DNA from: Tricharina praecox
Taxonomy: Eukaryota
Length of the DNA stretch: 20,000 bases
Direction: 5' to 3'
Assembly (NCBI RefSeq): GCF_024521635.1
Contig: NW_026250418.1
Span: 857,085 to 877,084, forward strand
A program made the translations under genes and the position numbers. Each line of letters begins with the position of its first letter. The first letter of the stretch is position 1. Under the pieces are notes generated by a model that was given only the letters and a program-made list of their open reading frames with translations, did no database searches and had not been told where the DNA came from. Positions 1 through 20,000 of this stretch are shown piece by piece.

Positions 1-2212
1 AGCAAGTAGCCTTCCTGCAAGCATGGCTGTTCTTCGGCATGTTGTCTGAGATTTCGTCCATCTGTGGACTCTCGATCGATTTGGAGGCCGAGTTCGTAGT
101 TGCCGGGCCAGCCGGTTCCCGGAAAGTGTGCACCGCCGCACTGGACGGTCTACCTCAGCGATGGTTGGATGCAGCCGACACGCGAATACTACACGATCCG
201 ACGACGAAGCACATACTGGATTCCGATCAGGCGGCGCGGATCGTTCGGGTCGTCCAACACGCCATGTCTATGCAGACGCGATATGAGGATCCGCGGAAAA
301 GCGAATCTCGGCGCCTCACATACCCGGAATGCAAAGTTCTGCTCTCGATACGGATGGTATCGAGAGCTGCGGTGTTGACATTAGCCGCATCGGAGGCGTG
401 CGACATGGTCATCATTCGGGCCTTGATGGATCCTCAGGTGCAGCAATCATTTCCAGCGCGCTGGGATGAGCTCAAGCAATTCGCCGCAGACGAGCTGCAG
501 CGCGAAGGCTGGTGCAGAAGCGAGTGTAAGCTGTTGGAGCGCATGGACGGCTCCTACGAATTCTTTGCTACTAGCCTAAAGCGCCAGAGAATGGACCATA
601 GTCAATGCGACGACTTCAGGTGCTTGGCCGACCAAGTGAATGAAGATGTTTATGAGACGGTCCATGTCGAGCCAGGATGTCGGTGCGCATCTGTTGTCGT
701 GGACCCCGAAGAACTGCAAGCCGTCCTGGCTAAGGGTAAGGTGCCGAGGATTCTGGTTTCCGAAGACTGCCGACTTGTGGTTACGGAAAATTGCCCGTAC
801 GCCGCGATATCACATGTTTGTAAGTTGAATGACCTTTCCCGCCAGTACGAGTGCCTAGATATATTGCCGTCACTAAGAACAATTCAGGGTCTCACGGCCT
901 AGGAAACCCATTCGAAAACGCTCTTCCTCGGTGCCAAATACGGCGCCTCAACCAACACATCGCGAAACTCCAAGTCGGCGGCAGTCCCGAAGCACGGATG
1001 GCCCTATGGATCGACACGCTTTGTATTCCCGTCGCCAAAAGTTTTCGAAGTTACCGCAACAAAGCTATCGTGCTACTCGGAAAGACGTACAAGGATGCCG
1101 ACGCGGTGTTAGTCTTGGACCGAGAATTAGAGCAGCTCGATACCGAGAGAGCATCACTACTGGAGCAGGAGCTGCTCATGTCCTTTGTCGGATGGACTCG
1201 ACGACTTTGGACCCTCCAGGAAGCAGCTCAAGCCCGGAAGTTATTTGTACAGACGCTGCAAGGGCCCCAGCCGGTTGACGTTGATCATCGCGTTCCGAGT
1301 CAAGAACTGGAAGAAAAAGAACAGGCAATATCACAAATATGTTTTCGCGAAGAGATCCAAGAACTTATCCGCAACCGAATCCCTTCTTTGCCCTCCTTGC
1401 AGAAATCTACCTTTCAAACGGCGGATCGTGGCGTTGGCTTGCCGCCCATCTCGGAGATCAGTACTTCCTACCAACGTCTCTGCTTCGCTGTCAAGCACCG
1501 TTCCACTAGCAAGATGACGGATGAGGCGATCATCCTGGCAACAATCATTGGCGCGGACACGCAAGAGTTTCTCAACGTGCGGGATGTCAACTCCAGAATG
1601 TCGATATTCCATACTCTGATGCGCGAGATACCCACCGACATCATATTCGGAGACGCCGAGAGAATCGGACGTGCTCCATTTCGCTGGGCACCTCGGTCTC
1701 TGCTGAATTTCAACATTTTCCGAATCCAATCGTTCGGACCACCTGCGATATGCGATGCACATGGACTTCATGCAACTTACGAGGGCCTCGTACTGGATGG
1801 TGGTTCGGGTGCGGAAGCGGAGGAGGGTAAATACTATGCTGAGGACCATGTTACCGGGATGAAGTATACATTTGCCCTTCGCGGTGATCCCCACCGGTCG
1901 TTCAGATTACCCGAAAGACCTGCGTTTCTTCTGCGGTACTACTGCATCAATAACGATGTGGCGGTGGTAAATATCTTGCGGGCTGTGGACAACGGGGATC
2001 TTGAAGTTGGCAACAGTGCCACAGCCGCAGTTCCATACGTCGGTGGTGGGACAGACGGCACCGGTGGCACAAACTGGGTATACGAGGTGACTATTGTTGG
2101 CTACTTGGAATTGGTTGCGTCCGGCGGTTCCTGGGGTATCGACGGAGAACCTCTGACCGCAAACCTTCAGGGAGCAATGACTGGGGCAGAGCAGAGATGG
2201 CTGGTTACGTGA
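1..2212 (+). CDS. HET-domain-type protein (heterokaryon incompatibility PF06985-like), 5' end outside window, two exons visible (<1-819, 888-2212)
   Basis: Frame is open from position 3 (QVAFLQAWLFFGM). ORFs 39-902 and 851-2212 join through a GT-AG intron to give YAAISHVW-SHGLGN, followed by LWIDTLCIP, VLVLD, WTRRLWTLQEA and FRWAP motifs typical of fungal HET proteins. Confidence 0.85.
820..887 (+). other. 68-nt spliceosomal intron
   Basis: GTAAGT donor at 820, CTAAG branch-like site near 873, CAG acceptor at 887. Splicing restores the Trp codon (T|GG) of SHVW and the downstream frame. Confidence 0.85.
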
Positions 2213-5189: not shown

Positions 5190-7469
5190 TTATCCCATGC
5201 ACCACAGTGGAGGAACGCCATTGGGCACTCTTTCCACTTTCCCCACCGTAATCACACCCTGCTTTCCAATAAAGTTGTCAACATCGGGCTCAACGAATAA
5301 GCGCACCAATTTCAAAAACCGGCAGAACCGAGTCCCTCCGTCTTCCCTCAATATCGAGACCAGTGCATGCAACCCGACCTTGCGGTCCTGATTGAGAATC
5401 ACCGCACCCCTCCCGATTTCTAGTATCGATTTATCAAACGCCTCCAAGTCCTGTGAAAGCTCATTCCACTCCACTTGATTCTTTCCGGACTTTCGTTCCA
5501 CCGGCCTCAATGACCAATGTCGCTTTCCCGGCCCCTCGGTCAGCGAAAAGTGACGATGCGGCCATGTCGGAGGAGTTATAGAGCGGAACTCCAGGACGGG
5601 GAGGTCAAGGTAAACACCGTTTTCGTCACGCAATACATCGGCGTTTTCGGCGGTTGCAATGCGGGCGCTCTGCTGAAGGAACGATTTTGGCGCTCAACGA
5701 TACCCCGCGGTTTCGAGGCGAGGCGTCGTGCCGAATATCAGGTTCCGTGGGACACGGTCGACCAACGAATAGAAGACAGCCATGCGCTCGTCGGCACTCG
5801 CGATCGCGGTGATTTTAGAGACGTCGTATCCCAACACGGAGGTCAAGCATATGGCCTCGTCTTCTTGCCGACTGGTGCGACGGTATTGGAGCACGCGCGC
5901 AAGGTATGTGAGCTTAACCGCGACATTGCCATGCAGAGGAAGCATGAGCAAAAGACTGTAGAGTGCGTTTTCCGAGTGCCAGAGACTCTTTGGGCTTCTT
6001 AAGAGGTCTTGAAAGTGGACTGGTCCGTCCGAAAATTGGATTTGCAGCTTGTCGCCGTGATTGCCATTCTTCGAGAGCACCGCTTCCTGGTACGTCCACA
6101 GCCGCCGGAACCACGCCGAGCTAAGGATACGCGTGCATTTCTCCATACGGCTTGCGAGCCGGGAGGTGGTCATCAGGCCTGTGTCGAGAACTAGGACGTG
6201 CTCTGATTCGTAGTATGTTGTGGCGAGACGGGTGATGGCCACCTTGCGGACTTCTTTCAGACTGGGAGCAACCGGGATGCACAGCGTGTCAACCCAGATA
6301 GCGAGCTTGCAAGAACTTTTCGGTCCGGAGACGGATGGGTTGAGTTCGCTAATCATTCCTTTAATCCTCGACAACTGGCAGTATGGAAGAGAATTGTTGT
6401 GGGCATTCCCCAAGCCCTGCGCCCAGGCATGCGAAAGCGCGACGTACGGACGGTCCGTGACGACTTCCAACTGGATATTTGGGTGATTATCGACTTCGTG
6501 TATGGCCACCAGCGGGATCTGGCCTTTCCTTAGAATCGAAACGACCTGCTCGACGTCCACCGAGATATGCTCACAACCTTGACAATCCTCGGTATGTTTC
6601 GTTTCGTACGTATCCTCATCAACCTGGTTCGCGTAGCATTGGACCTTTGTGCAGCTGCTATGGTCTTGTGGGGCAGACGCCGTGCTGTTGAACGTGCGCA
6701 TACGGCTGGCAATGTACAGACTCGTCGTATCCAGCAAATCGTGCAGCATAGTAGTGGCGCTGATACACCATCCGCCTTGCAACATGCGTGCTTGTAGAGG
6801 ATTCGTAGCCCGATTGAATCCAACTTTCCCGTCGTCTGCCAGTGCCGAGTCGTACAGCGGGACATGGATCGTTATCTTCGCCAGGTTGATGAGCGATTCG
6901 CCCAGCACCTGAATGCAAAGGATGGCGTCGAGCGGAAGAACGTCGGATATTCGCCACGACGTTGGCGACACCGTGTCCTCGTACCGCGAGATCATCCCAG
7001 AGACGAGCTTGAAAAGCTTTGCAAGGTCTTCGTGAGCCTTAACGCAGGACTTTATTGTTCTCTTGCCGGCATCGATGCATTGCCCGAAGTACTGCCTGGC
7101 CGGAAAGGTGGTTATGCACTGAACGGATCCTTCGGCGGGGCGCACAACGAATTCTTCCAAATCGATGGGGACTTCAAAGATTCGGAAAGCCTCGTGCAAC
7201 ATCCCGAAGAACAACCATGCCTGCAAGAAAGCAACTTTCTCTGCGGCCGACGAAGATAGCGTCTTTCCATCTCCAGAGACGCGCACCGGCCCATCATCGG
7301 TCGTGTAGTCGATCCTCCAGCCGTGCCGTGAAGGGTAGTCGAAAAAGCCTTGCTTATCGTAGTCGTTGGGCTCGCAGAGACATGGGATCTTGGGCAAAGC
7401 GTCTCCCGGTCAGTGAATGTCGGGAACGTGCCAGAGGGGGCCCAGGACATCGGGATCCTTTTGGGGCAT
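5190..7469 (-). pseudogene. HET-domain-type paralog with two in-frame TGA stops (7412-7410 and 5696-5694)
   Basis: One frame from ATG 7469 to stop 5190: MPQKD..VPDIH*PGDALPKIP..AFLQAWLFFGM..YVALSHAW..IWVDTLCIP..WFRRLWTYQEA..GYR*APKSFL..LWCMG*. Colinear with the gene at 1-2212, where the second stop corresponds to W in RWAP. Confidence 0.8.
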
Positions 7470-8214: not shown

Positions 8215-8399
8215 TTTGTTTCACATGCAAATCAAACAAATTAGCAAACCGCCAAAATTCCACGATCTTGCTGCTTTAGACTGGCATCAATTTTACATTG
8301 ACCGTTTATCTTGGGGCTTTAAACTCGCACCTATCTCTATGTAGGGGCATTTTGTTTGACATGCAAATCAAACAAATTAGCAAACCACCAAAATACCAC
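8215..8399. repeat. Two ~49-bp imperfect direct repeats (8215-8263, 8351-8399), each with an internal inverted repeat
   Basis: TTTGTTT(C/G)ACATGCAAATCAAACAAATTAGCAAACC(G/A)CCAAAAT(T/A)CCAC at 136-bp spacing in AT-rich DNA. Confidence 0.8.
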
Positions 8400-8593: not shown

Positions 8594-8823
8594 TGTCACA
8601 GCTCGCGGCAGAACGTTCGAGGAAGAGTGGGAACAGGGGCCGGAAGGCAGTGCGGGGGCAGTGCAAGGGGCTGCGCGGGCGGGAATGCAGGAATGAGAGG
8701 GAGGAATTGGGGCTGTGTGTTGGTAGCAGGGGTAGCGCGGCAGCGCAGGCTGTGAGCCGCTGCAGCGGGGTATCAGCGAGGGGGATTTCTCAGGGTCTGG
8801 CACATGCCCACGGTCATTGTCAT
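8594..8823 (+). mobile_element. Diverged 5' (U3) part of a family-A Gypsy LTR
   Basis: Starts TGTCACAG and aligns to the reverse complement of ~13043-13272 with many substitutions. Confidence 0.85.
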
Positions 8824-8934
8824 TATAATAAAGTACACTGGGAAAGTACTATACCACTTGACCAAAAGGTATTTTGATGGCTGAAGACCATCATCCCAGT
8901 GGCCACTTAAGGCCAGGATTTCAGAACTGTGACA
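8824..8934 (-). mobile_element. Solo LTR of the TRIM-like mini-element (older copy)
   Basis: 111 bp with 7 substitutions relative to 12350-12460. Flanks GTCAT and ATGGC do not match. Confidence 0.9.
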
Positions 8935-9374
8935 ATGGCGTTGCTTGGTCAGTCGGTCAACAAAAACACAGATGGCGTCAAACCCCTTTGAGGCCGGTAG
9001 GCGAGTGACAAAGTCGACTGAGATGTGTCGCCATGGCTTCTTAGGTACTGGGAGGGGGTGCAGGACACCATAGGGTGCGTGCCGGGTGGCCTTGGTTCGT
9101 CGGCAGGTGTGGCAGTTTCGGACAAACTGGTCAACGCCCTTTCGCATCTGTGGCCAGTAGTACCTCCGAGCAAGTGGTTCCAGGGTTTTCGTGCGCCCTG
9201 GGTGCCCCATGATCGGGTGTGCTGGTTGCTGCCAACCGGAGCTCTTCCGGTAGGTTGTCAGGTTTCAGGACTGCCTGCTGGTTGGCGAGCAGTCTTTCAT
9301 CCCCTTCTTTAGGGAGGTCTCCTGACCTCCTGGTCAGTGCATCCGGTTTTCCTCCCGCTTTGCCTGGCCGGTAG
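8935..9374 (-). pseudogene. Family-A pol fragment (RNase H end / integrase N-terminus) with internal deletion
   Basis: [29 protein letters not shown] and [27 protein letters not shown] are near-identical to the pol at ~14280-14947. The segment between EELRL and MGHPG is missing. Confidence 0.9.
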
Positions 9375-10066
9375 TGTGACACCCCGATAGGTATCAGAGG
9401 TCACCACGGTCGCAAGAGATGTGATGAGATAGTTCGGGTGATTAGAATAGAGTTGCGAGCCGGAAGGATAGTTAGAAGCGATCAAGGACAAGATAGGAAG
9501 GAGGGAGCAAACGGATTCCAGAGTCTAGACAGTGATCGGAGATGCGGCAGATCGGGATAACAGTCCAGAGGGCTTTGAGATCTCCGTTCATAGGGCCCCG
9601 CAGTAGAAACTCCGATCCAGGGAAAAACTGTTATGACGAGAGAATCGAACATCGACCGACGGGGGCAGAGAACTTCGAGCGAAGAACTCTGCCGGCGCAT
9701 GAGGGAGATAATTGCTCGGAAACTCCGATCTATCTTGGGCGCGTGGTGCTTACCACCTGCCTAGTCGAGAAGACTATCCAAAGAGAGCTGACGACGACTC
9801 GAGGCTAGGCCGCGGAACTCCGATGCAAAGGAAGCAACGGAGCTACATTAGGCCGCACTCTAGAGGAATCACCTGCTCAGGATCGGAACGACTATAAGTC
9901 GAACCGAGCGGGCAACCGAACCAAAAACCACAATCATCGCACCGAACAAACCATCGAAGAAACACCCTTAAGATTATTCCGTTGTGAATTATCGAAATCC
10001 CTGACTTTTATTCTACACTCGATATCACCATAGACTCCGACGACACAAACTCGTTCCAGTCTCACA
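9375..10066 (+). repeat. 5' LTR of family-B element (~692 bp)
   Basis: TGTGACA...TCTCACA termini. The left end coincides with the break in the family-A pol fragment. The right end is supported by related inverted copies starting at 8534 and 19341. Confidence 0.65.
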
Positions 10067-10104
10067 CTGTACTCTTAAGGTTACAGTCACCGATTTCTAA
10101 CGAA

Positions 10105-12105
10105 ATGGCCTCCTCAAACCTCGACATGCTCCGCCTCGAACTTACTCAGACCCTGAGCAATGCGCTCGTTAGCATCCCGCAAGCATCCGAAACCGTCGAA
10201 GTACGAAACCCGGCAGCCTGGCTCAGGCTGATGAACTACCAATACCAAACGGCACAAAGAGACCTGCGCCAACTTTACCAAGCATGCGATCAGAAGTTCA
10301 ACGAAGAGGACTCCCGAATGCAGGAGATCAGAAGGAACTACGAACAACTCTGCAATGGGGTCAAGTATGTGTGCAACCTCTACGCTCACAATGCCGAAAT
10401 GAATACAGAATGACTTCGAACCGAGCTGTCAACGGTAGCGAACACGACACACGCCCTGAGCAGCGACGTATGGGCAGTCATTCGAGAACGTAACCAGAAA
10501 GACGAAAACAACCGCGAGCTGCAAAGCGCCGCAAACGCTCGGCTACAAGACGCAACCGTGTTCCTCGAAACAGCGCAAGTCGAACAACGCAGGGAGCAAG
10601 CGGTGTATAACCGCAACGTGGAAATATGGGCAGGGAAACAGGAAGAGAAGGCGGAATACCTCTACAAAGAGCAACAGCGAATCAAGAAAAAAATCGCTCG
10701 AGCGGAGAAAAAATTGAAGGTTGTAGAGGTAAGGAGAGGGAAGGCGAAGGAAAAGGCCCAGAGTGGGTGAACACCACCCCAAGAGGAGGATCGAGCAGAA
10801 AGATCAGCAACAAGAGAAACTCCGGCAGGTGTAGGAATGTCCCCTCCTCCTCCACCCCCAAGACGTCCGGTGACTAACCTTGGAGGTGATCCCTCGGATG
10901 AGGAACCATCAGATGATGACGATTCCATCCCCTTGCCGCGTCGTTCGCCGCCCCGTCACCGAAACGCTCTGCTACCAAGAGAAGACGACGAAGACGAAGA
11001 GAGTCGCTTCGCTCGGATCATCGCTGCTGCCGTCTCCGCATCGAACCCGAGGGCCATCAAGCTTAAAATGACAGAGCCCGAGCCGTTCGATGGCAAGCAA
11101 AGGACAGCCTTCCGTCCATGGTGGGACTCAGTCGAAGAATATCTTGAGTTCCACCAAGAGACAAACGAGCAGCAGAAGATAGCGTGGGTGGGATCTTGAC
11201 TGGAAGGAACAGCGGCAGAATGGCATCAGGCCCGTCGAAAAAGCCTAAGGCAGCTAGACTTGGAAGATACGTGGCAGGCGTACCAAGAGGCACTCAAGGA
11301 GGCGTACCGCGACACGCAGGAGGGAGCGAACGCATTAGGAATGATGTGGGCCCTTGAATACAAAGGAGACATCTAGGCTTACATGACCTCCTTCCGATCG
11401 CTCAACATGATCGCTCGCGCCACTGGCGAACCGCTACAAGACATAGTCAACCAGGCCATGACCACCGACATTGTCGGCATGTGCTTCAACCAGCACACCG
11501 AACCCTACGAAGATGATGAGGACTTCCTGCAAATGATGCTCAGGGCTGGCAACCATGTGGAACGACGGGACGCGCTGAAAAAGGCAAGGGCAATGAGGAA
11601 AGGGGGATCGGGTAGCCAGGGTTCCGGCGGCGACCGGAAGGGACCTGGCAACGGCCGGCAGGGCCAAGGAAAGGGCAGAGACCCCGGGGGCCGCAAGGAA
11701 AGCGGGGAGTCCCCGGAGGGCCGAAAGGCCAAGGAAGCAACAGCAGTCAGGAAGGGAAGGACAAGGGAAGGGGACATCTACGCGGGAGCAAAGGAGGCTC
11801 AGGTAGGGGTTCCTCAGAAGGAGATCGATGCCCACAAAGCATCCAAATGCGACTGTTGGCGTTGCGGATGAGATGGCAACCGAACCTTCCAATGCTACGC
11901 CAGGAAAACAGTCGCGGGTACCGAACTCCCGGAGAGTCCAAAGGTGTCGTCCGTGACAAAGAGAAAACGGGACACCCAGGATGCCGAACCCACTCGACCG
12001 AGGTCCAAGCAACACAAGGCTGCGGCGGTTGTGGTGGAGGATGAAGCAATGACGGAGGCACCTCCATTCTGGGAGAGGAATGAGAGCAACCTGGAGGATT
12101 TTTGA
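10105..12105 (+). pseudogene. gag: gag of family-B element, 666 codons with five in-frame stops
   Basis: ORFs at 10105, 10558, 10837 and 11383 share one frame, with stops at 10411, 10768, 11197, 11374 and 11869. Contains PEPFDG motif and degenerate knuckle CWRCG*DGNRTFQC. Confidence 0.8.
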
Positions 12106-12349
12106 GCGGCCCCAGCACTCCGCAGACTGGACGGCCAGGTGTATATATTTGCGGAACGAAGAGACCACGGCCTCAGGATATCGACAGCGAATCCAGAGAT
12201 AAGCGAAGACGAACGGACCAACCTATTTCTACGAGTCCAACAGCGCCGAGTGCCTCAGGGTGCGAGCCCCAAAAACCAGTCAGTGGACCACGACCAATCA
12301 TAGAAATGATGCTCCTCTGGTCTGAGCAGTAGCGACGACGGATCCGGGT
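12102..12349 (+). pseudogene. pol: Family-B pol start (left part, before insertion)
   Basis: -1 frame relative to gag after GGATTTT (12096-12102). Stop at 12330, then RRRIR continuing into the DTG protease beyond the insertion. Confidence 0.65.
12345..12349 (+). repeat. Left copy of 5-bp target-site duplication CGGGT
   Basis: Identical to 18850-18854. A single copy restores the protease frame (CGG GTA CTC CTC GAC ACA GGA). Confidence 0.92.
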
Positions 12350-12613
12350 TGTAATAAAGTACACTGGGAAAGTACTATACCACTCGACCAAAAGGTATTT
12401 TGATGGCTGATGGCCATCATCCCAGTAGCTACTTAAGGCCAGGATTTCTGAACTGTGACAGTATCCCCTCTTTAGGGGCTTACTCCAGGAAGCCTTCAAG
12501 TAGTTAACCCCCAATGAGTGATAATTCATGATAAGAGTCATGAACCGTCACTCACTGTAAGCCATGCAATTCCTGAACAACGCTGCAGCAGAGGAATGTA
12601 ACTGCTCACAGTG

Positions 12614-12688
12614 GGAATTGAACTCATGACCTTTGCAGCCATCAAACTGTAATAAAGTACACTGGGAAAGTACTATACCACTCGACCA
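12614..12688 (-). promoter_or_regulatory. Putative type-2 (tRNA-like) Pol III internal promoter
   Basis: A box TGGTCGAGTGG (12688-12678) and B box GAGTTCAATTCC (12625-12614), 52 nt apart. The B box is followed by a tRNA-3'-end-like CACTGTGAGCA. Confidence 0.65.
12636..12646 (-). promoter_or_regulatory. Self-priming primer-binding site of the mini-element
   Basis: Minus-strand TTTGATGGCTG just after the 5' LTR is exactly complementary to CAGCCATCAAA inside the LTR (12707-12697). Confidence 0.75.
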
Positions 12689-12762
12689 AAAGGTATTTTG
12701 ATGGCTGATGGCCATCATCCCAGTAGCTACTTAAGGCCAGGATTTCTGAACTGTGACAGTAG

Positions 12763-13272
12763 TGTAACGGCACGGTCGGGCAAGGCTCCAGGTAGCGAAG
12801 TCGGGCTCGGAATCGGGTTCTAGGTTCGGCAGAGACAAGACAGGTTCAGAGGACAAGGTGAGGCAGGGCTCAGTGCGGACGGCAACTGAGAACAGAGGCA
12901 GGGACAAGGACTACGGCGCAGACGGCAGCCGAGGCAAGGACAGAGGTAACAGTGATTGAATTAACAAGTTGTTGCGTGAAGAACTAAGTACAGAGGGGCA
13001 ACGGCCCGTTTATATAGGAAACCCTCCACTTCTTCTCGCAACCTGACAATAACCGTGGGCGTGTGCCAGACCCTGAGAAATCCACCTTGCCAGTACCCCG
13101 CTTCCGTGACTCATACCCTGCGCAGCCGCACTACCCCTGCTTACTGCACACAGCCCCAATTCCTCCGGCTCATTCCTGCATTGCCGCCCGCGCAGCCCCT
13201 TGCACTGCCCCCGCGCTGCCTTCCCACCCCTGTTCCGACTCTTCCTCAAACGTCCCGTCGCGAGCCGTGACA
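12763..13272 (-). repeat. 3' LTR of family-A element
   Basis: Direct repeat of 18340-18849 with one difference seen (13258 T vs 18835 C). TG..CA termini. Confidence 0.95.
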
Positions 13273-16200
13273 GTAGCCCCTCCTAAGGCTCGAGTTCCCA
13301 CGAGAGCAAGTTGAACTGGTCCAGGCTTCGTTGGGTACCGTTGGTGGAAGTCGTCCACTGCCTGTACGTCCACAAGGTTCTCCTCAGGTTCCCACGTCGG
13401 TGCCGTGAAACCCCTCCACTTGACTAGGTACTGGAGTCTTCCCCTCAGCGTTCTGCTGTCCAGCACTTCCTCCACCTCCCATTCTTCTTGGTCGTTCACA
13501 ATTACCGGTAACGGTGGCGGCAGGATCTGGCCGGGGAGGGGGTCGTCGGCCGATGCATGGAGGAGGGACACTGGGAAGGTGCGGTGCTTTTGGATGGTGT
13601 TCGGGATGTCCAGTTCGTATGCGTGGGTTCCGATGGCTCGGGTAATCCGATAGGGTCCGTGGTGTTTGTTTTCCAGTTTTCGGCTTGGCCGCTCCGTCCG
13701 CCAGTTTCGGCCGTCCACCCATACCATGTCTCCAGGCTGGAAGGCCGGTGCGGGGGTTCGGTGCCGGTCCGTGTTGTCCTGCTGCCGTGCTTGGGCGTAG
13801 CGCATCTCACTTCGGGCAACGTCGTGGATCTGTTGGAGTCGCTCTACCGCTGTCTGCGCCTGTCGCTCTTCGTTCGTGTCGGTTCGGATGTCAAGCTCGA
13901 AGTTGCAACGGGGGGTGGTAGCCTAGGTTAGCAAAAAACGGGGACAGGGTAGTGGTGTCGGATGTCTGGTTGTTGCCAGCGAACTCTGCTAAGAATAGGT
14001 AGTCGACCCAGTCGTCCTGCAGGTAGCTCACGTATGCCCGGAGGTGTTGTTCCATTACCGCATTCATCCTCTCTGTTTGACCGTCTGTCTGCGGGTGGAA
14101 CGCCGTGGAGAGCCGTGCGTCGATCTTGAGGCAAGAGCATAGATGTTTCCAAAATCGTGATGCAAACTGGGGGCCCCGGTCCGATACGATGGTGTCGGGT
14201 AGTCCGTGGTATCTGAAGATCCGATCGCAGAATAGTTCGGCGAGTCCCTCGGAGGTGATGGTCGTGTTGCAGGGGAGCAGGTGTCGTTGCTTGGTGAGGC
14301 GGTCCACAAATACGCAAATGGCATCGAATCCTTTTGAGGGAGGGAGTCCGGTTACGAAGTCGACGGATATATGTTGCCAGGGTTTCTCGGGTACTGGGAG
14401 TGGGCGGAGCACACCGTAGGGGGCGTGTCTTGTTGCTTTGGTTCGTCTGCAAGTGTGGCAGTTCCTCACGAATCGGTCAACGTCCGTCCGCATCTGGGGC
14501 CAGTAGTAGTTCCGGGCCAGGAGTTCCAAGGTTTTTGCTCTTCCGGGATGGCCCATAGCCGGCGGGTCGTGGTGGTCCTGGATCAGGCGAAGTCTGAGTG
14601 GGTCGTGTTCAGGAACGTAGAGGCAATCGCGGTAATGTAATTGTCCGTTGACTTCGCTGCAGTCGGCGAGCGAGATGTCCTTTGAGTGGCGTGTTCCGTT
14701 TCTGAGCAGTTGGAGGATCTTGTTCGGCACTGGATCTGCCTGATATGCTTCGTTTATCAGGGTAGAGAGTGCGGGACGGGGTACTTCCAACGGGTTGGTT
14801 GCTGACAATCTCAATTCTTCCGGCAGGTTTTGGGGCTTGAGGACTGCTTGTTGGTTCGCCAGCAGTCTTTCATCCCCCTCCTTAGGGAGGTCTCCGGACC
14901 TTCTTGTCAATGCATCCGGTTTCCCTCCTGCTTTACCAGGTCGATAGACGATTTTGAAGTCGAAACGGGACAGGAATTCCGACCATCGTGCTTGCCGGCG
15001 GTTGAGCAACTTGGTTGACATGAAGTATTCCAGGTTCTTGTGGTCGCTCAGGACTTGGATTGGGTGCGCGGCTCCTTCAAGGTGTGGTCTCCATTCTTCA
15101 AAGGCCCGAACAATCGCCAACAATTCTTTGTCGTAGATTTCGTAATTGCATTCCGCCGGGGAGTGTTTCTTTGAATAGAAGGCAACTGGATGCAAGATTC
15201 CATCGTCGTCGTACTGGGAGAGGATACCGGCCGATACGTAATCCGAGGCATCAGTTTCCACCACTATTTCTCGGTCGTAGTCGAAATGTCGGAGGATCGG
15301 GGCGCTAGTGAAGGCAGTCTTGAGAGTGTCGAAGGCTTGCTGTTGGTCAATACCCCATTCGAAGGGGACGTACTTCCCATTTTCCTTTTTTGTCATTGCC
15401 GTCAGGGGAGATACCACCTTAGAGTAGTCCTGGATAAAGCGTCGGTAGAAGTTTGCAAAGCCCAAGAAACATTGCACATCCGTTACCGTCGTCGGTTTTT
15501 CCCATTCGAGTACGCAAGAGACTTTGGCAGGATCCATTTTAATACCCTCCGTGGTTATGATCAGGCCCAGGTATTTGACCTCCGTCTGGTGGAAGTGGCA
15601 TTTCTCCGGTTTTAAGTGCAGTCCGGCCGATGAAAGGGCGCGTAGCACTTTGGTGACCTGTTTTTGGTGTTCTTCCAGTGACGCGCTGTAGATAAAGACG
15701 TCATCTAGGAAGGCGGTACAGAAGTCGTCCAGGAACGGTCGTAAAACGTCGTTGATCAGGGCTTGGAAGTCGGCTGGCGCATTGGTTAGCCCGAAAGGCA
15801 TTACCAATGATTCGAAAAGTCCGTAGCGGGTCCGGAAAGCCGTTTTCCATTCCTCCCCTTCTGCCATTCGTACCAGGTTGTAAGCACCGCGGATATCCAG
15901 TGTTGTAAAATACTTTGCACCGGACAGTCGCATCAAGGTTTCCTGGAGCAGGGGAAGTGGGTAGCGGTTCTTGATGGTTCCTTCGTTCAGGCCTCGATAG
16001 TCCACACACAGTCGCAAGGAGCCGTCCGATTTTTTGACAAACAGGATCGGTGATGCCGCTGGTGATGAGGACGCACGGATAAATCCCTTGCTCAGATTGT
16101 CGTCAAGCCATTCCTTGAGTGCGACCAGCTCGGTTTTCGAGAGCGAATAGAGGGGTCCGTAAGGGGGCACAAATCCTTCCTTTAGTGGGATCTTGTGGTC

Positions 16201-17122
16201 GTATTGCCGATGGGGGTGGTAGGTTCTGCGCCAACCTTTCGGAGAACAGGTGGAGAAATTCGTGATATTCGGGGGGAATGTGGGCGGTTGAGCTCTGTTT
16301 TTCTTCAGATAGAACTTCATTGATCTCCCTCAGGGTCGTGGTGAAGATGGTAAGGTTCTCCTTTCCTGCCATCTGCTGGAAAGACTTCATCCGGAGGGCT
16401 GAGATTCTGACCGTGGGTTTTCTCTGATTAGCATCCTGCTGGTGTTCATTGATCTGGGGAGACGTAACGTATCGGGCCACGATGTCGCCGGCCCCCGCGC
16501 TTACCGCTGGCTCCTCCAGAGCTACGTTTGGTGCGAGAGCGTAAGGTAGTTCCGGTGGGTCTGTAGTGATACCGTGGGCTACTGTGGGTACCGTATTGCA
16601 GTGTGCAGTGCAATATTGGGAACCAAAGGTGAGGGTGCGTGAGCTGAATCGGATGGCCACGTCGTGTAGGTCCATCCAGGGAATTCCGAGTACGATTGGG
16701 TAGTGCCCCAGTTTGGTGACGAACATCGGGAGTTCTTCATGGTGCTCTTGGATTGACAGGGTGGTGGTGGCAACGTGTGTGATGTCGCCGGACTCGATGG
16801 GGCGGCCGTCGATGACCTCAAGGGCGCGCGGGGATTCAAGGGGTACAAGGGGTAGGTTGTGATGGCGGGCGAAGTCCTTGTTCACAAAGGCGATTCCGGT
16901 TGCTCCACAATCGATCAGCGCATGCGTGGCAATGGTTTTGTCACCAAACGAAAGGTTACATAGTACAACGAGATGTTTTCCTTCCATTGATGATTCCTCC
17001 ACTACCATCCCAGACACTGACAAATTGGACAAACGATAATGAGTAGAAAAGGGAGAAAAAGACTTATCCTGGGTACGACCAACAACGGTGCCATCAAGCA
17101 GTTGTTGGTCTAGGCTTTTCCC
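13170..17122 (-). CDS. pol: Pol polyprotein (protease, RT, RNase H, integrase, chromodomain), split by two +1 homopolymer frameshifts
   Basis: ALIDCGATG protease; [18 protein letters not shown] and AFLDD RT; ETDAS and YDKELLAI RNase H; GHPG..CHTC, SDRGPQF and DGQTER integrase; GPY motif; [20 protein letters not shown] chromodomain. Shifts at 16212-16216 and 13910-13915. Confidence 0.93.
13273..13286 (-). promoter_or_regulatory. Polypurine tract of family-A element
   Basis: Minus-strand TTAGGAGGGGCTAC directly before the 3' LTR. Confidence 0.8.
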
Positions 17123-18300
17123 GACTGTCCTTGGTTGTCGCCACAATTCTGGTTGCAATTGTGGTATGGGTGGTCGGGGGTCAGGGTTCCTGGTTGCTCG
17201 TGCGTCAGCTGTGCAGCTGCGGCACGGAAAGGGTTCCGATTCTTGTTCGGGCAGTGTCGGGCCATGTGGCCACTGCCTCCACAGTATAGGCAGCGACCCT
17301 CGCGGAGACGCGCAGCTCGTTCTTGATCAGAGATCTTGCGACTGTTCGCGCTGAGGTCCATAGCCCCTGGGGCTGTTCCGGTTGCAGTGGTTGCCGGTGG
17401 TGTACTGTTATGCGTTTGATTCCTCGGCGGGGCTGGGGGTTGCGGGGTGGGGTTTTGTCGCGGGGGGTTGCGGCGGCCTTCACGGAGTTGGAGGGCACGT
17501 AGCTCGGAATCGAGGCTCTGGCAGAGAGCCACGAACTGGTTGTAGGTGAGTCCCTGAGTGCGGCCCACCAGTTGTCGGTGGAGCTCGATGGAGACTCCTT
17601 CGCGGAGTGCGTCGAGTTTGGCATGCTCGTCCCAGTTCAGCTTGGACACGAGTCTTTGAAACTCCGCAAAGTAAGACGTAAAGTCCTTGTTTCCTTGCTT
17701 GAGGCGGTGAAGTTCGGCGCGTGCGGTGGCTGCTGGGTCAGGATCGCCGAAGGCGTTTTCGAGGATGGTGACCATGGCATCGGCGTCGGTCAAGCTGATC
17801 ACGTTGTTCTGGATGTACGGCAGTATCTGGGCTTGGGCACGGCCTTCGAGACGGTTGAAGGTGTAGGCCATTCTGAGTGCTGGGGACGGGAAACGGGTAG
17901 GGTCGCTGTATAGTTTGAGTCGAAGCTGGGCAACGAACCCTTCGAGCTTCTCTCGAGTGCCATCGAACATGGCTGGCTCCGGGACGCGCTCGGCGCGGCC
18001 CTGAGGTTGGGTTTCTAGTGTGGCGAGACGGTTGGCGATACGACGGGAGTTGGCAAGTTGTTCTTCGAGGTCGTCTATTCGCCAGGTGGGTGCTGCTGTG
18101 GGGGATTGGGTGATTGCACGGGCTATGATTTGGAACTGGTTATACAACCCCGACAGTGTTGCATTGTCGGCGGGTGAGTCGTGGTTAACGATGATCTCGA
18201 GTTGTTCGTAGACAGTGGCGGGAATTTCTCGACAGTAGGGAGGTGCCACCAGTACTTCCTCCTGCTGGGGAGGGTCTGGTGCTGGGGTATTGGTGGCCAT
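17110..18300 (-). CDS. gag: Gag (396 aa)
   Basis: Intact ORF starting 40 nt after the 5' LTR, PEPAMFDG, LKQG, PGAMDL motifs and zinc knuckle CLYCGGSGHMARHC. Confidence 0.95.
   Translation of the reverse strand: MATNTPAPDPPQQEEVLVAPPYCREIPATVYEQLEIIVNHDSPADNATLSGLYNQFQIIARAITQSPTAAPTWRIDDLEEQLANSRRIANRLATLETQPQGRAERVPEPAMFDGTREKLEGFVAQLRLKLYSDPTRFPSPALRMAYTFNRLEGRAQAQILPYIQNNVISLTDADAMVTILENAFGDPDPAATARAELHRLKQGNKDFTSYFAEFQRLVSKLNWDEHAKLDALREGVSIELHRQLVGRTQGLTYNQFVALCQSLDSELRALQLREGRRNPPRQNPTPQPPAPPRNQTHNSTPPATTATGTAPGAMDLSANSRKISDQERAARLREGRCLYCGGSGHMARHCPNKNRNPFRAAAAQLTHEQPGTLTPDHPYHNCNQNCGDNQGQSGKA
17116..17122 (-). promoter_or_regulatory. -1 ribosomal frameshift heptamer G GGA AAA at the gag-pol overlap
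   Basis: X XXY YYZ pattern in the gag frame just before the gag stop. The -1 frame is the protease ORF. Confidence 0.75.
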
Positions 18301-18328
18301 GGTTCTTCGCTAGGTGGAGAGATGGGCG

Positions 18329-18337
18329 ACGCAACAA
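18329..18337 (-). promoter_or_regulatory. Self-priming PBS of family-A element
   Basis: Minus TTGTTGCGT begins after a 2-nt spacer following the 5' LTR and is complementary to ACGCAACAA at 18554-18546, about 32 nt downstream of TATATAAA (18593-18586). Confidence 0.8.
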
Positions 18338-18339
18338 AG

Positions 18340-18849
18340 TGTAACGGCACGGTCGGGCAAGGCTCCAGGTAGCGAAGTCGGGCTCGGAATCGGGTTCTAG
18401 GTTCGGCAGAGACAAGACAGGTTCAGAGGACAAGGTGAGGCAGGGCTCAGTGCGGACGGCAACTGAGAACAGAGGCAGGGACAAGGACTACGGCGCAGAC
18501 GGCAGCCGAGGCAAGGACAGAGGTAACAGTGATTGAATTAACAAGTTGTTGCGTGAAGAACTAAGTACAGAGGGGCAACGGCCCGTTTATATAGGAAACC
18601 CTCCACTTCTTCTCGCAACCTGACAATAACCGTGGGCGTGTGCCAGACCCTGAGAAATCCACCTTGCCAGTACCCCGCTTCCGTGACTCATACCCTGCGC
18701 AGCCGCACTACCCCTGCTTACTGCACACAGCCCCAATTCCTCCGGCTCATTCCTGCATTGCCGCCCGCGCAGCCCCTTGCACTGCCCCCGCGCTGCCTTC
18801 CCACCCCTGTTCCGACTCTTCCTCAAACGTCCCGCCGCGAGCCGTGACA
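18340..18849 (-). repeat. 5' LTR of family-A element
   Basis: 510-bp direct repeat of 12763-13272, contains TATATAAA. Confidence 0.95.
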
Positions 18850-18854
18850 CGGGT
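18850..18854 (+). repeat. Right copy of TSD CGGGT
   Basis: Identical to 12345-12349. Confidence 0.92.
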
Positions 18855-19340
18855 ACTCCTCGACACAGGATGTGCCATTCCGATCATCAAACGAAGCCTT
18901 GCACTAGAACTTGGGTTGCCCCTCATTCAACTGCCCAAGCCGGTGGAAATCAAGGACTTCCACAGAACCATAGTGGAAGGAGCCGGAGAATATTATACAA
19001 TGCCGATGCTCCTCCAACACCGGAGACACTACACCAACGAAACCTTCGAAGTGGCTCCCTTGGACGACTGCGATGCCTACCTCCCGTATTGGTGGATGGC
19101 TAAGCATGAACTGACAGGGTTCTGGGAGAATGAAGCACAGAGAATCCGCTTCACTAGCGCCCGATGCAAGGAACAATGCACCTTGCAACAAGCAACCAGC
19201 TTTCCGATGGAACTTGACACGTCTGTCGTTCACAATTCGGAGGCTCGCATTATCGGATACGTCTCAGCTGGCCCGGAATCAGATCCACCCATAAATCTGC
19301 TTCCGGAGAAGTTCAGACGAGATGCCAACATCATGAGCAA
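18855..19340 (+). pseudogene. pol: Family-B aspartic protease and linker (right part)
   Basis: LLDTGCAIPII..FEVAPL..AYLPYWWM..LLPEKFR, cut before RT at 19341. Confidence 0.8.
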
Positions 19341-20000
19341 TGTGAAACTGGAACGATTTCGGTCGTTGGAGTCGATTGATAGAATAGGATAAGAATGAAG
19401 ATAGATAGTATTCTTTCTTTCACAAGCGGAATAATCTTAAGGGGTAGTGTCGATGGTTTTCTGGTCGCTGATTCTGATGATGAATCTTTCGTCGTGTCGT
19501 CGGAAGTCTATAGTTGGGTGATGTGATCGAGTCACGTGCCAGCCGTTGCCGTAGTTTGTTGCCGGATGGAACCCCTGGCGTGAAATCTCTGCACTTGGTG
19601 CGGAGACTTTCTCCGCCATGTCATCAGAGTTGTCGTAAGCTTTCAGGATAGTTTATACAAACTAGGCAGGTATGGCGCACCAATCCTTACCCGAGCATAG
19701 TCCGGTTTCAGCTATCTCCCCGCTGGGCAACGGCTGCGCCTTTCGGCACGGCTCTTATTTGCTTAAGACGCGAGAAGAGGGGCAACACTCGTCATAGTGG
19801 TTTTTCTCCGATCAGAGTTTCCTCTGCGCTTGTTCCGCGATTCGCCTGCCTCAAGTCAAGGATGACTGTATCGGACTTTTTGTGCGTATCGCTGCGCCTC
19901 CGATCCCACCTAGACTCTGGTTCCGTTTGCTTCCTTCCTTCCTATCTCGTCTCTGACTAGCTACGACTAATCTAAAAAATCCCCTCCTGTTCCCCGATCT
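19341..20000 (-). mobile_element. Diverged family-B-like LTR in reverse orientation, runs off the window
   Basis: Starts TGTGAAACTGGAACG. Shares CGGAATAATCTTAAGGG and AGATAGGAAGGA..GCAAACGGA..CCAGAGTCTAG blocks with 9375-10066 in inverted, colinear order. Confidence 0.75.

Follow-up and report, generated by a model that had tools for sequence, protein, structure and literature searches.

Structure of the locus

The window, by which we mean the entire 20,000-nucleotide stretch of Tricharina praecox DNA analyzed here, carries two LTR retroelements placed head to tail: a mini element of 409 bp with two LTRs (12350-12758) and a chromodomain-containing Gypsy element of 6087 bp (12763-18849; Table 1). 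The Pfam domains of the Gypsy and the purine tract beside the left LTR of both elements place their sense on the minus strand, bearing out the common orientation described in the first-pass annotation. That annotation also reported a single target-site duplication around the pair, which the coordinates and letters confirm: one 5-bp repeat, CGGGT, encloses the whole, and with flanks of CGGGT/GTAGT for the mini element and AGTAG/CGGGT for the Gypsy, neither has a duplication of its own. As an estimate of chance for the CGGGT match, identical 5-mers are found at the same spacing at 21 of 13490 window positions. The outer ends (Gypsy U3 at 18849, mini U5 at 12350) are trimmed to TG/CA, and at both of them no base intervenes between the LTR and the duplication, as expected after processing by integrase. 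The structure typical of integrase-type insertion, namely TG..CA termini set against a short direct duplication with a single-copy empty target, is seen for the pair and for neither element alone. The locus sits within a dense nest of retroelement debris.

Excision of 12350-18854 yields a host sequence reading ...RRRIRVLLDTGCAIPIIK..., which recovers the host reading that had been said to be restored on removal of the pair, but with an in-frame stop three codons upstream of it in this copy. The public-run evidence consists of assembled contigs among the matches listed, and these include the empty site: in a contig from run X1 (484 nt) and in another from run X6, 12346 is followed after a single letter by 18853, giving an uninterrupted host repeat with a single 5-mer that differs at one base. 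Both contigs represent paralogs of this host repeat (that of X1 differing at 16 positions on one side and 5 on the other), and loose ends in runs X16 and X4 agree with the uninterrupted site. The LTR pairs are likewise as nearly identical as first described, and similar in age; the lone difference between the Gypsy LTRs lies at 13258/18835.

The mini element combines short LTRs with a short non-coding core bounded by a primer-binding site (PBS) and a polypurine tract (PPT), and is present in several copies, which is the organization of TRIMs and other non-autonomous LTR elements. Its identical 111-bp LTRs, 187-bp core and TG..CA ends are all TRIM-like. Unlike TRIMs, it appears to be self-primed rather than tRNA-primed, and this copy lacks a duplication of its own. 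The 11-nt complementarity between its PBS and LTR is reached by none of 5000 LTR shuffles, and the minimum-energy fold (z -3.9) pairs the two stretches with each other. Searches of the internal region returned no tRNA, one Rfam match far under the gathering score, and no homology to the Gypsy above that of shuffles. Contigs of the mini element occur in three of the four public runs (among the matches listed), and a third LTR copy, 94% identical, is found in the window at 8823-8934. This solo LTR has no flanking duplication; its neighbors are a piece of Gypsy-like LTR in inverted orientation on one side and pieces of Gypsy-like integrase on the other.

The larger element has the makeup of a chromovirus: gag, protease, reverse transcriptase (RT), RNase H and integrase occur in order with a chromodomain at the integrase C-terminus, and all four minus-strand frames have Pfam matches, that of the protease being weak. 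As assembled, its pol is broken into three frames by two single-G insertions in G runs. One extra G, at ~13910, puts the 13170-13922 frame out of register with the rest of pol and is absent in X16 and X4; the other, at ~16212, splits the protease frame from the RT and is missing in nearly all the depth of X16, X1 and X6. Hence, the earlier description of the Gypsy as autonomous is doubtful for this copy; other copies in the runs lack the extra Gs. The GGGAAAA heptamer is likely to be the site of a gag-to-pol -1 frameshift, as the -1 frame past it continues into the protease frame. The Gypsy too appears to be self-primed: the LTR stretch complementary to its PBS starts ~30 nt downstream of TATATAAA, a TATA box, and this stretch pairs with the PBS in the minimum-energy fold as well as in the centroid fold; a complementarity of this length (9 nt) is reached by 70 of 5000 shuffles.

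In its gag-PR-RT-RH-IN order, SH3_Tf2-1 domain and chromodomain, the Gypsy resembles the chromoviruses Tf1, Tf2 and Tj1, and it resembles them as well in a PBS complementary to an LTR-internal stretch downstream of the TATA box, from which sequence feature self-priming is predicted here. In Tf1, gag-pol is a single frame. The gag and pol of the Gypsy are in different frames, likely connected by a -1 slip, whereas Tj1 is described as using a stop codon; the 5-bp duplication is as in Tj1 (PMC4600332).

Table 1. Features of the mini–Gypsy pair and its target site (window positions)
Feature	Positions	Strand	Basis or remark
Target-site duplication, left copy (CGGGT)	12345-12349	.	Single-copy form in paralogous host-repeat contigs
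Mini 3' LTR, 111 bp	12350-12460	-	111/111 identical to 12648-12758; integration was through its outer (U5) end
Mini internal region, 187 bp, non-coding	12461-12647	-	No tRNA; no homology to Gypsy above shuffles
Mini polypurine-tract side	12461-12480	-	Sense strand ...AAAGAGGGGATAC before 3' LTR; 14/20 bases as in Gypsy
Mini primer-binding site, 11 nt	12636-12646	-	Complementary to LTR positions 52-62 (12697-12707 in 5' LTR)
Mini 5' LTR, 111 bp	12648-12758	-	U3 end is the inner, unprocessed end
Junction (GTAG)	12759-12762	.	Between mini 5' LTR and Gypsy 3' LTR
Gypsy 3' LTR, 510 bp	12763-13272	-	509/510 identical to 18340-18849; U5 end is inner, unprocessed
ORF with integrase C-terminal SH3_Tf2-1 and chromodomain	13170-13922	-	Pfam PF24626 2.9e-15, PF00385 1.1e-12
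Gypsy polypurine-tract side	13273-13292	-	Sense strand ...AGGAGGGGCTAC before 3' LTR
ORF with RT, RNase H, integrase zinc-binding and core	13891-16329	-	RVT_1 1.8e-34, RT_RNaseH_2 1.6e-34, Integrase_H2C2 2.8e-21, rve 1.4e-9
ORF with protease region	16103-17326	-	Asp_protease_2 E 0.0096, below cut-off (weak Pfam support)
gag	17110-18309	-	Retrotrans_gag 2.5e-9, DUF4939 2.8e-10; first ATG 18300; CCHC knuckle ~17292
GGGAAAA heptamer	17116-17122	-	Directly before gag stop codon
Gypsy primer-binding site, 9 nt	18329-18337	-	Complementary to LTR positions 296-304 (18546-18554)
Gypsy 5' LTR, 510 bp	18340-18849	-	Integration was through its outer (U3) end
Target-site duplication, right copy (CGGGT)	18850-18854	.	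Letters checked; host-repeat contigs of public runs

The junction between the two elements

The mini LTR ends in ...GTGACA at 12758 and the Gypsy LTR starts with TGTAAC... at 12763, in the same orientation, with four bases between them. Of these, GT matches the dinucleotide directly beyond the mini LTR on the polypurine side (12461-12462), and AG matches the dinucleotide just ahead of the Gypsy LTR on the PBS side (18338-18339). When the possible splits of the 4 bp are compared with the elements' own internal flanks, 2+2 and 1+3 fit; 0+4, 3+1 and 4+0 fail. The 2+2 origin is that expected if two linear cDNAs were joined blunt before processing, as happens at the junction of a 2-LTR circle, with the 2-bp terminal extensions of the two cDNAs presumably being those indicated by the flanks. 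This origin of the four bases is new here; it went unnoticed in the first-pass annotation and is the strongest argument for reading the pair as one inserted unit.

Retroviral cDNA is described as blunt, with integrase taking 2 nt off each 3' end (PMC8742673); LTR–LTR junctions are correspondingly described as end-joined linear cDNA, with U5 abutting U3, 4 bp from the unprocessed termini between the conserved CA and TG, and host end-joining credited for their formation (PMC1905944, PMC9324142). The present junction likewise has a complete U5 end followed head to tail by a complete U3 start, and the bases between CA and TG match the PPT- and PBS-side neighbors, the cDNA ends being deduced from the flanks. 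Unlike 2-LTR circles, which are extrachromosomal forms of one element, it joins two different elements with unrelated LTRs, and lies not in a dead-end circle but in the chromosome, between host flanks and within one integrase-type duplication. The proposal that integrase used one end from each element is upheld by the proper U3 (Gypsy) and U5 (mini) outer ends, the single duplication and the untrimmed 2+2 inner bases.

Origin of the composite insertion

Briefly, we consider it probable that a pair of free cDNAs became linked end to end and that integrase inserted the pair via one U3 and one U5 end. Two complete linear cDNAs, those of the 409-bp self-primed mini element and the 6.1-kb self-primed chromovirus, would have been unintegrated simultaneously. 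The chromovirus U5 end would have been joined blunt to the U3 end of the mini element while both still carried the two terminal bp normally trimmed by integrase, leaving 4 bp between the LTRs. Integrase would then have processed the remaining ends (chromovirus U3, mini U5), and concerted insertion into the CGGGT site of an older, degenerate retroelement would have produced the single 5-bp duplication. The joining might have been carried out by host NHEJ or through an end-to-end template jump of the reverse transcriptase; it could have preceded strand transfer, with the dimer integrating normally, or followed it, with one intasome holding a terminus of each molecule and the unattached inner termini being sealed later. 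The equally young LTR pairs (0/111 and 1/510 differences) count in favor of joint insertion, the evidence for which comes from a single locus. As reported for Tf1, about half of the cDNA retains the full PBS extension, and most ends receive untemplated bases from the RT (PMC11042837); hence, a clean 2+2 junction would not be the sole, and perhaps not the commonest, expectation for a self-primed element.

The first-pass annotation went further, in that it took the insertion to link a parasite to its helper and to imply co-packaging or a shared pre-integration complex. The latter does not follow, since host end-joining in the nucleus and ordinary integration of the dimer would give the same sequence. 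Co-packaging of the mini element and the chromovirus is plausible in itself; that the composite is its fossil, with both RNAs in one particle and one intasome taking the U3 of one cDNA and the U5 of the other, strikes us as unlikely. Under co-packaging, each self-primed RNA would have been copied in full, because there is no mutual homology for strand switching. What stands of the parasite–helper relationship is a set of shared cis signals, namely the first six and last five LTR bases, 14 of 20 bases at the polypurine side and the same self-priming layout; comparison of the two elements found no homology besides these LTR termini and the PPT-side similarity, and each has its own matched primer/PBS pair. 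Further, this Gypsy copy may itself not have supplied the proteins, because of the two frameshifts in its pol as assembled.

Several other routes to such a structure merit consideration. The two elements could have arrived sequentially, the first integrating with the CGGGT duplication and the second cDNA entering at its LTR/flank boundary through integrase-independent microhomology or single-strand annealing via the common LTR termini. Tf1 lacking or bypassing integrase is indeed described as inserting beside related elements by Rad52-dependent annealing, and tandems, including hybrid Tf1-Tf2 ones, are described from wild isolates (PMC11042837); moreover, the bases shared at the two ends of the LTRs offer possible microhomology. 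Yet an integrated element has lost its terminal dinucleotide, which leaves either the GT (mini) or the AG (Gypsy) unexplained, whichever came first; the annealing-pathway tandems of that source share a single LTR, whereas two complete unrelated LTRs abut here; and the LTR ages are equal within error. We accordingly regard sequential arrival as improbable. The motif-preserving alternative, two independent integrase events at one target site, is an established route to head-to-tail dimers of duplication-making elements, as in the Drosophila tandem dimers, but it leaves the target duplication represented once more at the junction (PMC5932611). The mini–Gypsy junction reads GTAG and not CGGGT, and has 4 bp rather than 5, which makes this account scarcely credible.

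It might also be that the two elements were never inserted together, or are not adjacent at all. A rearrangement could have removed the sequence between nearby mini and Gypsy insertions, along with one flank of each, and these families do occur in rearranged mixture elsewhere in the window, as at the solo mini LTR among Gypsy-like pieces. Such a deletion would have to break precisely 2 bp beyond the LTR end on either side and leave identical outer 5-mers by coincidence, and it sits poorly with a host sequence that closes up perfectly on removal of the block, in agreement with the paralogous empty sites; we hold it to be a remote prospect. An assembly or library artefact, through a chimeric read or a repeat-induced misjoin, must be weighed in a region this repetitive, where LTR depth in X16 reaches several thousand and the homopolymer indels in pol are typical of long-read assemblies; among the contigs listed from the public runs, none bridges 12349/12350, 12758-12763 or 18849/18850. 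The case against assembly error is made wholly by the internal logic of the sequence: a misjoin would not be expected to bring the intact end of one LTR up to the intact start of another with just the four predicted bases in between, nor to put the same 5-mer on both outer sides at a point where the paralogs run uninterrupted. On these grounds, we judge an artefact to be very improbable.

Comparison with known tandem elements

With joint insertion of end-joined cDNAs as the favored reading, the pair can be compared with tandems of other provenance. Like the tandems of Tf1/Tf2 in fission yeast and of LTR retrotransposons in rice and other plants, some of which are described as lying under a single 5-bp duplication, it is head to tail in one orientation. 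In the shared-LTR tandems of these accounts, LTRs alternate with internal regions, so that a single LTR separates internal regions of the same or closely related families, and their formation depends on homology (PMC11899658, PMC11042837). The mini–Gypsy pair is also comparable with the double-insertion dimers of Drosophila P, hobo, jockey and R1, as a head-to-tail dimer made by transposition itself, but those are described as keeping the target duplication in the junction (PMC5932611) and the mini–Gypsy junction has none. Unlike shared-LTR tandems, the present locus has four LTRs, of which the inner two abut, and homology only at the termini. Shared-LTR recombination was rejected as a candidate, as two unrelated LTRs (111 and 510 bp) abut instead of one LTR separating related internal regions.

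Implications

Tandem LTR retrotransposons are usually put down to homology, via shared-LTR recombination or annealing, or to repeated hits at one target. The mini–Gypsy locus fits neither route, and is possibly a rare natural trace of tandem formation by end-joined free cDNA copies. If real and recurrent, this would mean that: (i) integrase can complete its concerted reaction in vivo on the ends of two different cDNAs, or on a cDNA dimer; (ii) a non-autonomous element and its possible helper meet as DNA, beyond their encounters as RNA and protein; (iii) tandem arrays can be seeded from single elements independently of homology. Were the co-packaging reading both true and recurrent, heterologous and homologous LTR–LTR dimers would offer a readout of who is packaged with whom.

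The junction provides a simple signature, an LTR end, 4 bp and an LTR start under one duplication, for which any long-read assembly can be screened. In one X16 contig (depth 7), two mini LTRs meet end to start (12462 to 12646), apparently by the same type of junction. The two sides of this joint read GT and AC, matching the prediction of the rule derived above, in a single short contig with a shorter side of 29 letters and possibly with extra letters at the joint. This mini–mini joint hints that LTR–LTR dimers recur.

Two retrotransposons within a single duplication

The block at 12350-18849 is composed of two LTR retrotransposons in one orientation, with their sense on the minus strand: a non-coding mini-element, whose LTRs enclose a core of 187 bp, and a Gypsy element, whose two LTRs differ solely at 13258/18835 (Table). 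This bears out the first-pass annotation, which had described a pair in the same orientation with nearly or fully identical LTR pairs. The Pfam matches of the Gypsy element are spread over four minus-strand frames, and the domain set, including a chromodomain, identifies it as a chromovirus.

Table. Features of the mini-Gypsy pair and of an older fragment of the two families in the window
Feature	Position	Strand or orientation	Remarks
Mini-element, 409 bp	LTRs 12350-12460 and 12648-12758	minus	LTRs 111 bp each, 111/111 identical
Gypsy element, 6087 bp	LTRs 12763-13272 and 18340-18849	minus	LTRs 510 bp each, 509/510 identical
gag	17110-18309	minus	Pfam
Protease	16103-17326	minus	Pfam, weak match
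RT, RNase H, integrase zinc and core domains	13891-16329	minus	Pfam
SH3_Tf2-1 domain and chromodomain	13170-13922	minus	Pfam
Gypsy-like LTR piece	8594-8822	opposite orientation	87% identical to 13044-13272
Solo mini LTR	8823-8934		94% identical; first TG now TA; no flanking duplication (GTCAT / ATGGC)
Gypsy-like integrase pieces	8936-9210 and 9223-9374		76-82% identical

The 5-mer CGGGT is present at 12345-12349 and repeated at 18850-18854, i.e., at the outer ends of the pair, as had been claimed. The individual flanks are unequal (CGGGT/GTAGT for the mini-element; AGTAG/CGGGT for Gypsy); hence, again in keeping with the earlier claim, neither element has a duplication of its own. By chance, two 5-mers at the spacing of the duplication agree at 21/13490 window positions. 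The interrupted host is an older, degenerate retroelement whose best left frame contains 20 stops, with a CCHC-like knuckle upstream. Once 12350-18854 is removed it reads ...RRRIRVLLDTGCAIPIIK..., and the protease reading that this removal was said to restore is indeed seen, with its DTG, in the closed-up host; the Asp_protease_2 match to it is weak (Pfam E 0.15, right half). This host spans 9375-12349 and 18855-19392 and is very high-copy, with a summed depth of about 1400-1900 in X16, one of the public sequencing runs (X1, X4, X6 and X16) compared with the window as contigs. Along with the DTG protease-like stretch, it displays a gag-like region, to which the knuckle belongs, and many in-frame stops; no RT was found downstream within the window.

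The same runs also contain the host site in its uninterrupted form. In a 484-nt X1 contig and one X6 contig, 12346 is joined to 18853 with one letter between, giving a continuous host with one 5-mer in which one base is different, and loose ends in X16 and X4 give the same reading. The X1 contig differs from the host at the locus by 16 and 5 on its two sides; thus, the empty-site contigs represent other copies of the host repeat rather than the empty allele of the locus. These paralogous contigs show that the mini-Gypsy block is an insertion with 5 bp duplicated.

As to the coding state of the Gypsy copy, the heptamer GGGAAAA (17116-17122, minus), which we take to be a slip site by the usual rule for such sites, lies directly ahead of the gag stop, past which the -1 frame runs into the protease frame, making a programmed frameshift from gag to pol likely. 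The pol region is further split into three frames because two of its G runs, at about 13910 and about 16212, are one G too long, whether through genuine mutation or through homopolymer errors of the assembly. The extra G at about 16212 is absent in 56/61.8 of the depth in X16, 13.8/13.8 in X1 and 105/105 in X6, and that at about 13910 in 71/261 of the depth in X16 and 26.7/50.8 in X4; therefore, intact relatives exist. The prior description of the chromovirus as autonomous is doubtful for this copy, which, as assembled with its two pol frameshifts, is not coding-intact, be the additional bases genuine or sequencing-type errors.

The LTR-LTR junction

Four bases, GTAG (12759-12762), separate the end of the mini LTR (...GTGACA, 12758) from the start of the Gypsy LTR (TGTAAC..., 12763). 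GT is also found after the other mini LTR, beside the polypurine tract (12461-12462), while AG is found before the other Gypsy LTR, beside the primer-binding site (18338-18339). Read on the sense strand, the order is Gypsy ...TTACA, CT, AC and mini TGTCAC..., where CT links the Gypsy 5' LTR to the primer-binding site that follows it and AC is the last two bases ahead of the mini 3' LTR. The junction is one that the internal flanks of the two elements would predict: only the 2+2 and 1+3 splits of GTAG are compatible with them, those of 0+4, 3+1 and 4+0 being incompatible.

According to PMC8742673, retroviral cDNA is blunt-ended and carries, at each terminus, two additional base pairs that integrase takes off; if the cell ligates such ends instead, the resulting LTR-LTR junctions hold four base pairs from the conserved CA up to the conserved TG (PMC1905944, PMC9324142). 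Given this precedent and the origin of GTAG in the internal flanks, the inner ends of the pair have the appearance of cDNA termini that were ligated to each other untrimmed, and the outer ends that of termini trimmed and then integrated. Clean 2-bp cDNA ends are an assumption for these elements because those of Tf1 are often extended: passages of PMC11042837 report that about half of its cDNA keeps the full primer-site extension and that its RT puts untemplated bases on most cDNA ends.

One short X16 contig joins 12462 to 12646, so that the end of one mini LTR meets the start of another; its aligned sides read GT and AC, as the junction rule predicts for two mini-elements. The support is thin: depth 7, a shorter side of 29 letters and letters between the sides given as 'not known'. 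That depth is close to the value for apparently single-copy pieces (about 6-7) and unlike that for the mini core (about 40), contig depth being a poor measure of copy number here. On this slender evidence, the contig suggests either a chromosomal head-to-tail mini-mini dimer or a 2-LTR circle. A joint in X1 that 'goes back 298' was set aside as an uninformative LTR-core-LTR cycle collapsed by the assembler.

Mechanism and alternatives

The most economical account has three parts. Complete cDNAs of both elements would have been free simultaneously; a blunt joint would have formed between the U5 end of Gypsy and the U3 end of the mini-element; and integrase would have taken the Gypsy U3 and mini U5 ends, a normal U3/U5 pair except that two molecules supplied it, for one concerted insertion. 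In one order of events, a dimer made by host end-joining, or by RT jumping end to end from one template to the other, may have undergone a normal integration. Alternatively, one intasome may have held ends of the two cDNAs, with the cell sealing the free ends afterwards. The first-pass annotation had favored the one-intasome order with co-packaging; the sequence fits both orders equally.

Other routes to such a pair fare less well. If the elements had entered one after the other by the annealing pathway that Tf1 uses without integrase, the products would be tandems that share one LTR, as described in PMC11042837; moreover, an integrated element has lost its terminal dinucleotide, so that half of GTAG would go unexplained. 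A double insertion at one target leaves a target copy in the junction, in the cases treated in parts of PMC5932611, but GTAG contains none. The shared-LTR tandems of rice, as portrayed in sections of PMC11899658, have three LTRs and related elements, whereas the locus has four LTRs and unrelated elements. A composite read-through RNA moving as a unit is ruled out by reasoning: it could be reverse-transcribed only with R regions that match, and the product would carry hybrid LTRs, whereas the two outer LTRs of the pair are unlike each other and complete. Misassembly would produce neither a base-perfect LTR-to-LTR joint nor matching outer 5-mers where the paralogs run continuous; nevertheless, it keeps some weight because no spanning read was seen, and among the run contigs listed none bridges the three junctions (host/mini, mini/Gypsy and Gypsy/host).

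Apparent self-priming and the relationship of the two elements

Judging from base complementarity, both elements look self-primed. In the mini-element, a stretch of 11 nt that begins at +2 after the 5' LTR is the complement of LTR positions 52-62, a length reached by 0/5000 shuffled LTRs. The corresponding stretch in Gypsy is 9 nt from +3, complementary to LTR positions 296-304, which start about 30 nt after TATATAAA; 70/5000 shuffles reach 9. The two primer/site pairs differ, each being matched internally. In RNAs taken to begin at these LTR positions, minimum-energy folds pair the primer and site stretches of both elements, with z = -3.9 for the mini fold and the whole Gypsy leader folding no better than shuffles; as we chose the RNA 5' ends, the folds serve only as a consistency check. 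Portions of PMC4600332 present the same layout as shown for Tf1 and proposed for Tj1, and give Tj1 a 5-bp duplication like that of our pair.

Besides this layout, what the two elements have in common is limited to the first 6 and last 5 bases of their LTRs and to 14/20 bases on the polypurine side. When cores and LTRs are aligned locally, they score no higher than shuffles, so the mini-element does not derive from this Gypsy by deletion; the adjoining Gypsy or a relative thereof may serve it.

To our eye, the stretch of the mini core just inside the primer-binding site (12596-12630) resembles the T-arm/B-box part of a tRNA. ARAGORN detected 0 tRNA genes in the window, and the one Rfam match of the core, to mir-5728 (E 0.33, 20 bits vs a gathering score of 100), is taken as chance. 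When metagenomes were scanned for the sequence pattern of the mini LTR end, 3 loci came up, none related beyond the pattern (a 24-nt match in one, no match in the other two).

Novelty and neighboring sequence

The ingredients are known singly: LTR-LTR junctions from end-joining, tandems of LTR elements within a single duplication, and non-autonomous mini-elements. Their combination, in which heterologous elements are dimerized LTR to LTR under one duplication and each partner contributes one integrated end, was not found described in the full texts searched, mostly those outside subscription journals. It is seen at one locus, read from an assembly and nested in retroelement debris. The list of LTR-LTR junctions in Drosophila in Supplemental Table S2 of PMC5932611 may bear on its novelty. 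The main value of the locus lies in its simple signature, which can be searched genome-wide.

The mini and Gypsy families meet in a second place in the window, an older, rearranged mix of the two at 8594-9374 (Table). Upstream of this old Gypsy-like fragment, in an AT-richer stretch, sits a 49-nt direct repeat (8215-8263 / 8351-8399; 94% identical, 136 bp apart). Farther off, the frame at 5694-7409 (minus) matches the HET (heterokaryon incompatibility) domain (Pfam, 8.2e-8), with a second match below the cut-off (0.0017) in the frame at 833-2212 (plus); these frames agree with a genome of the filamentous-fungus type.
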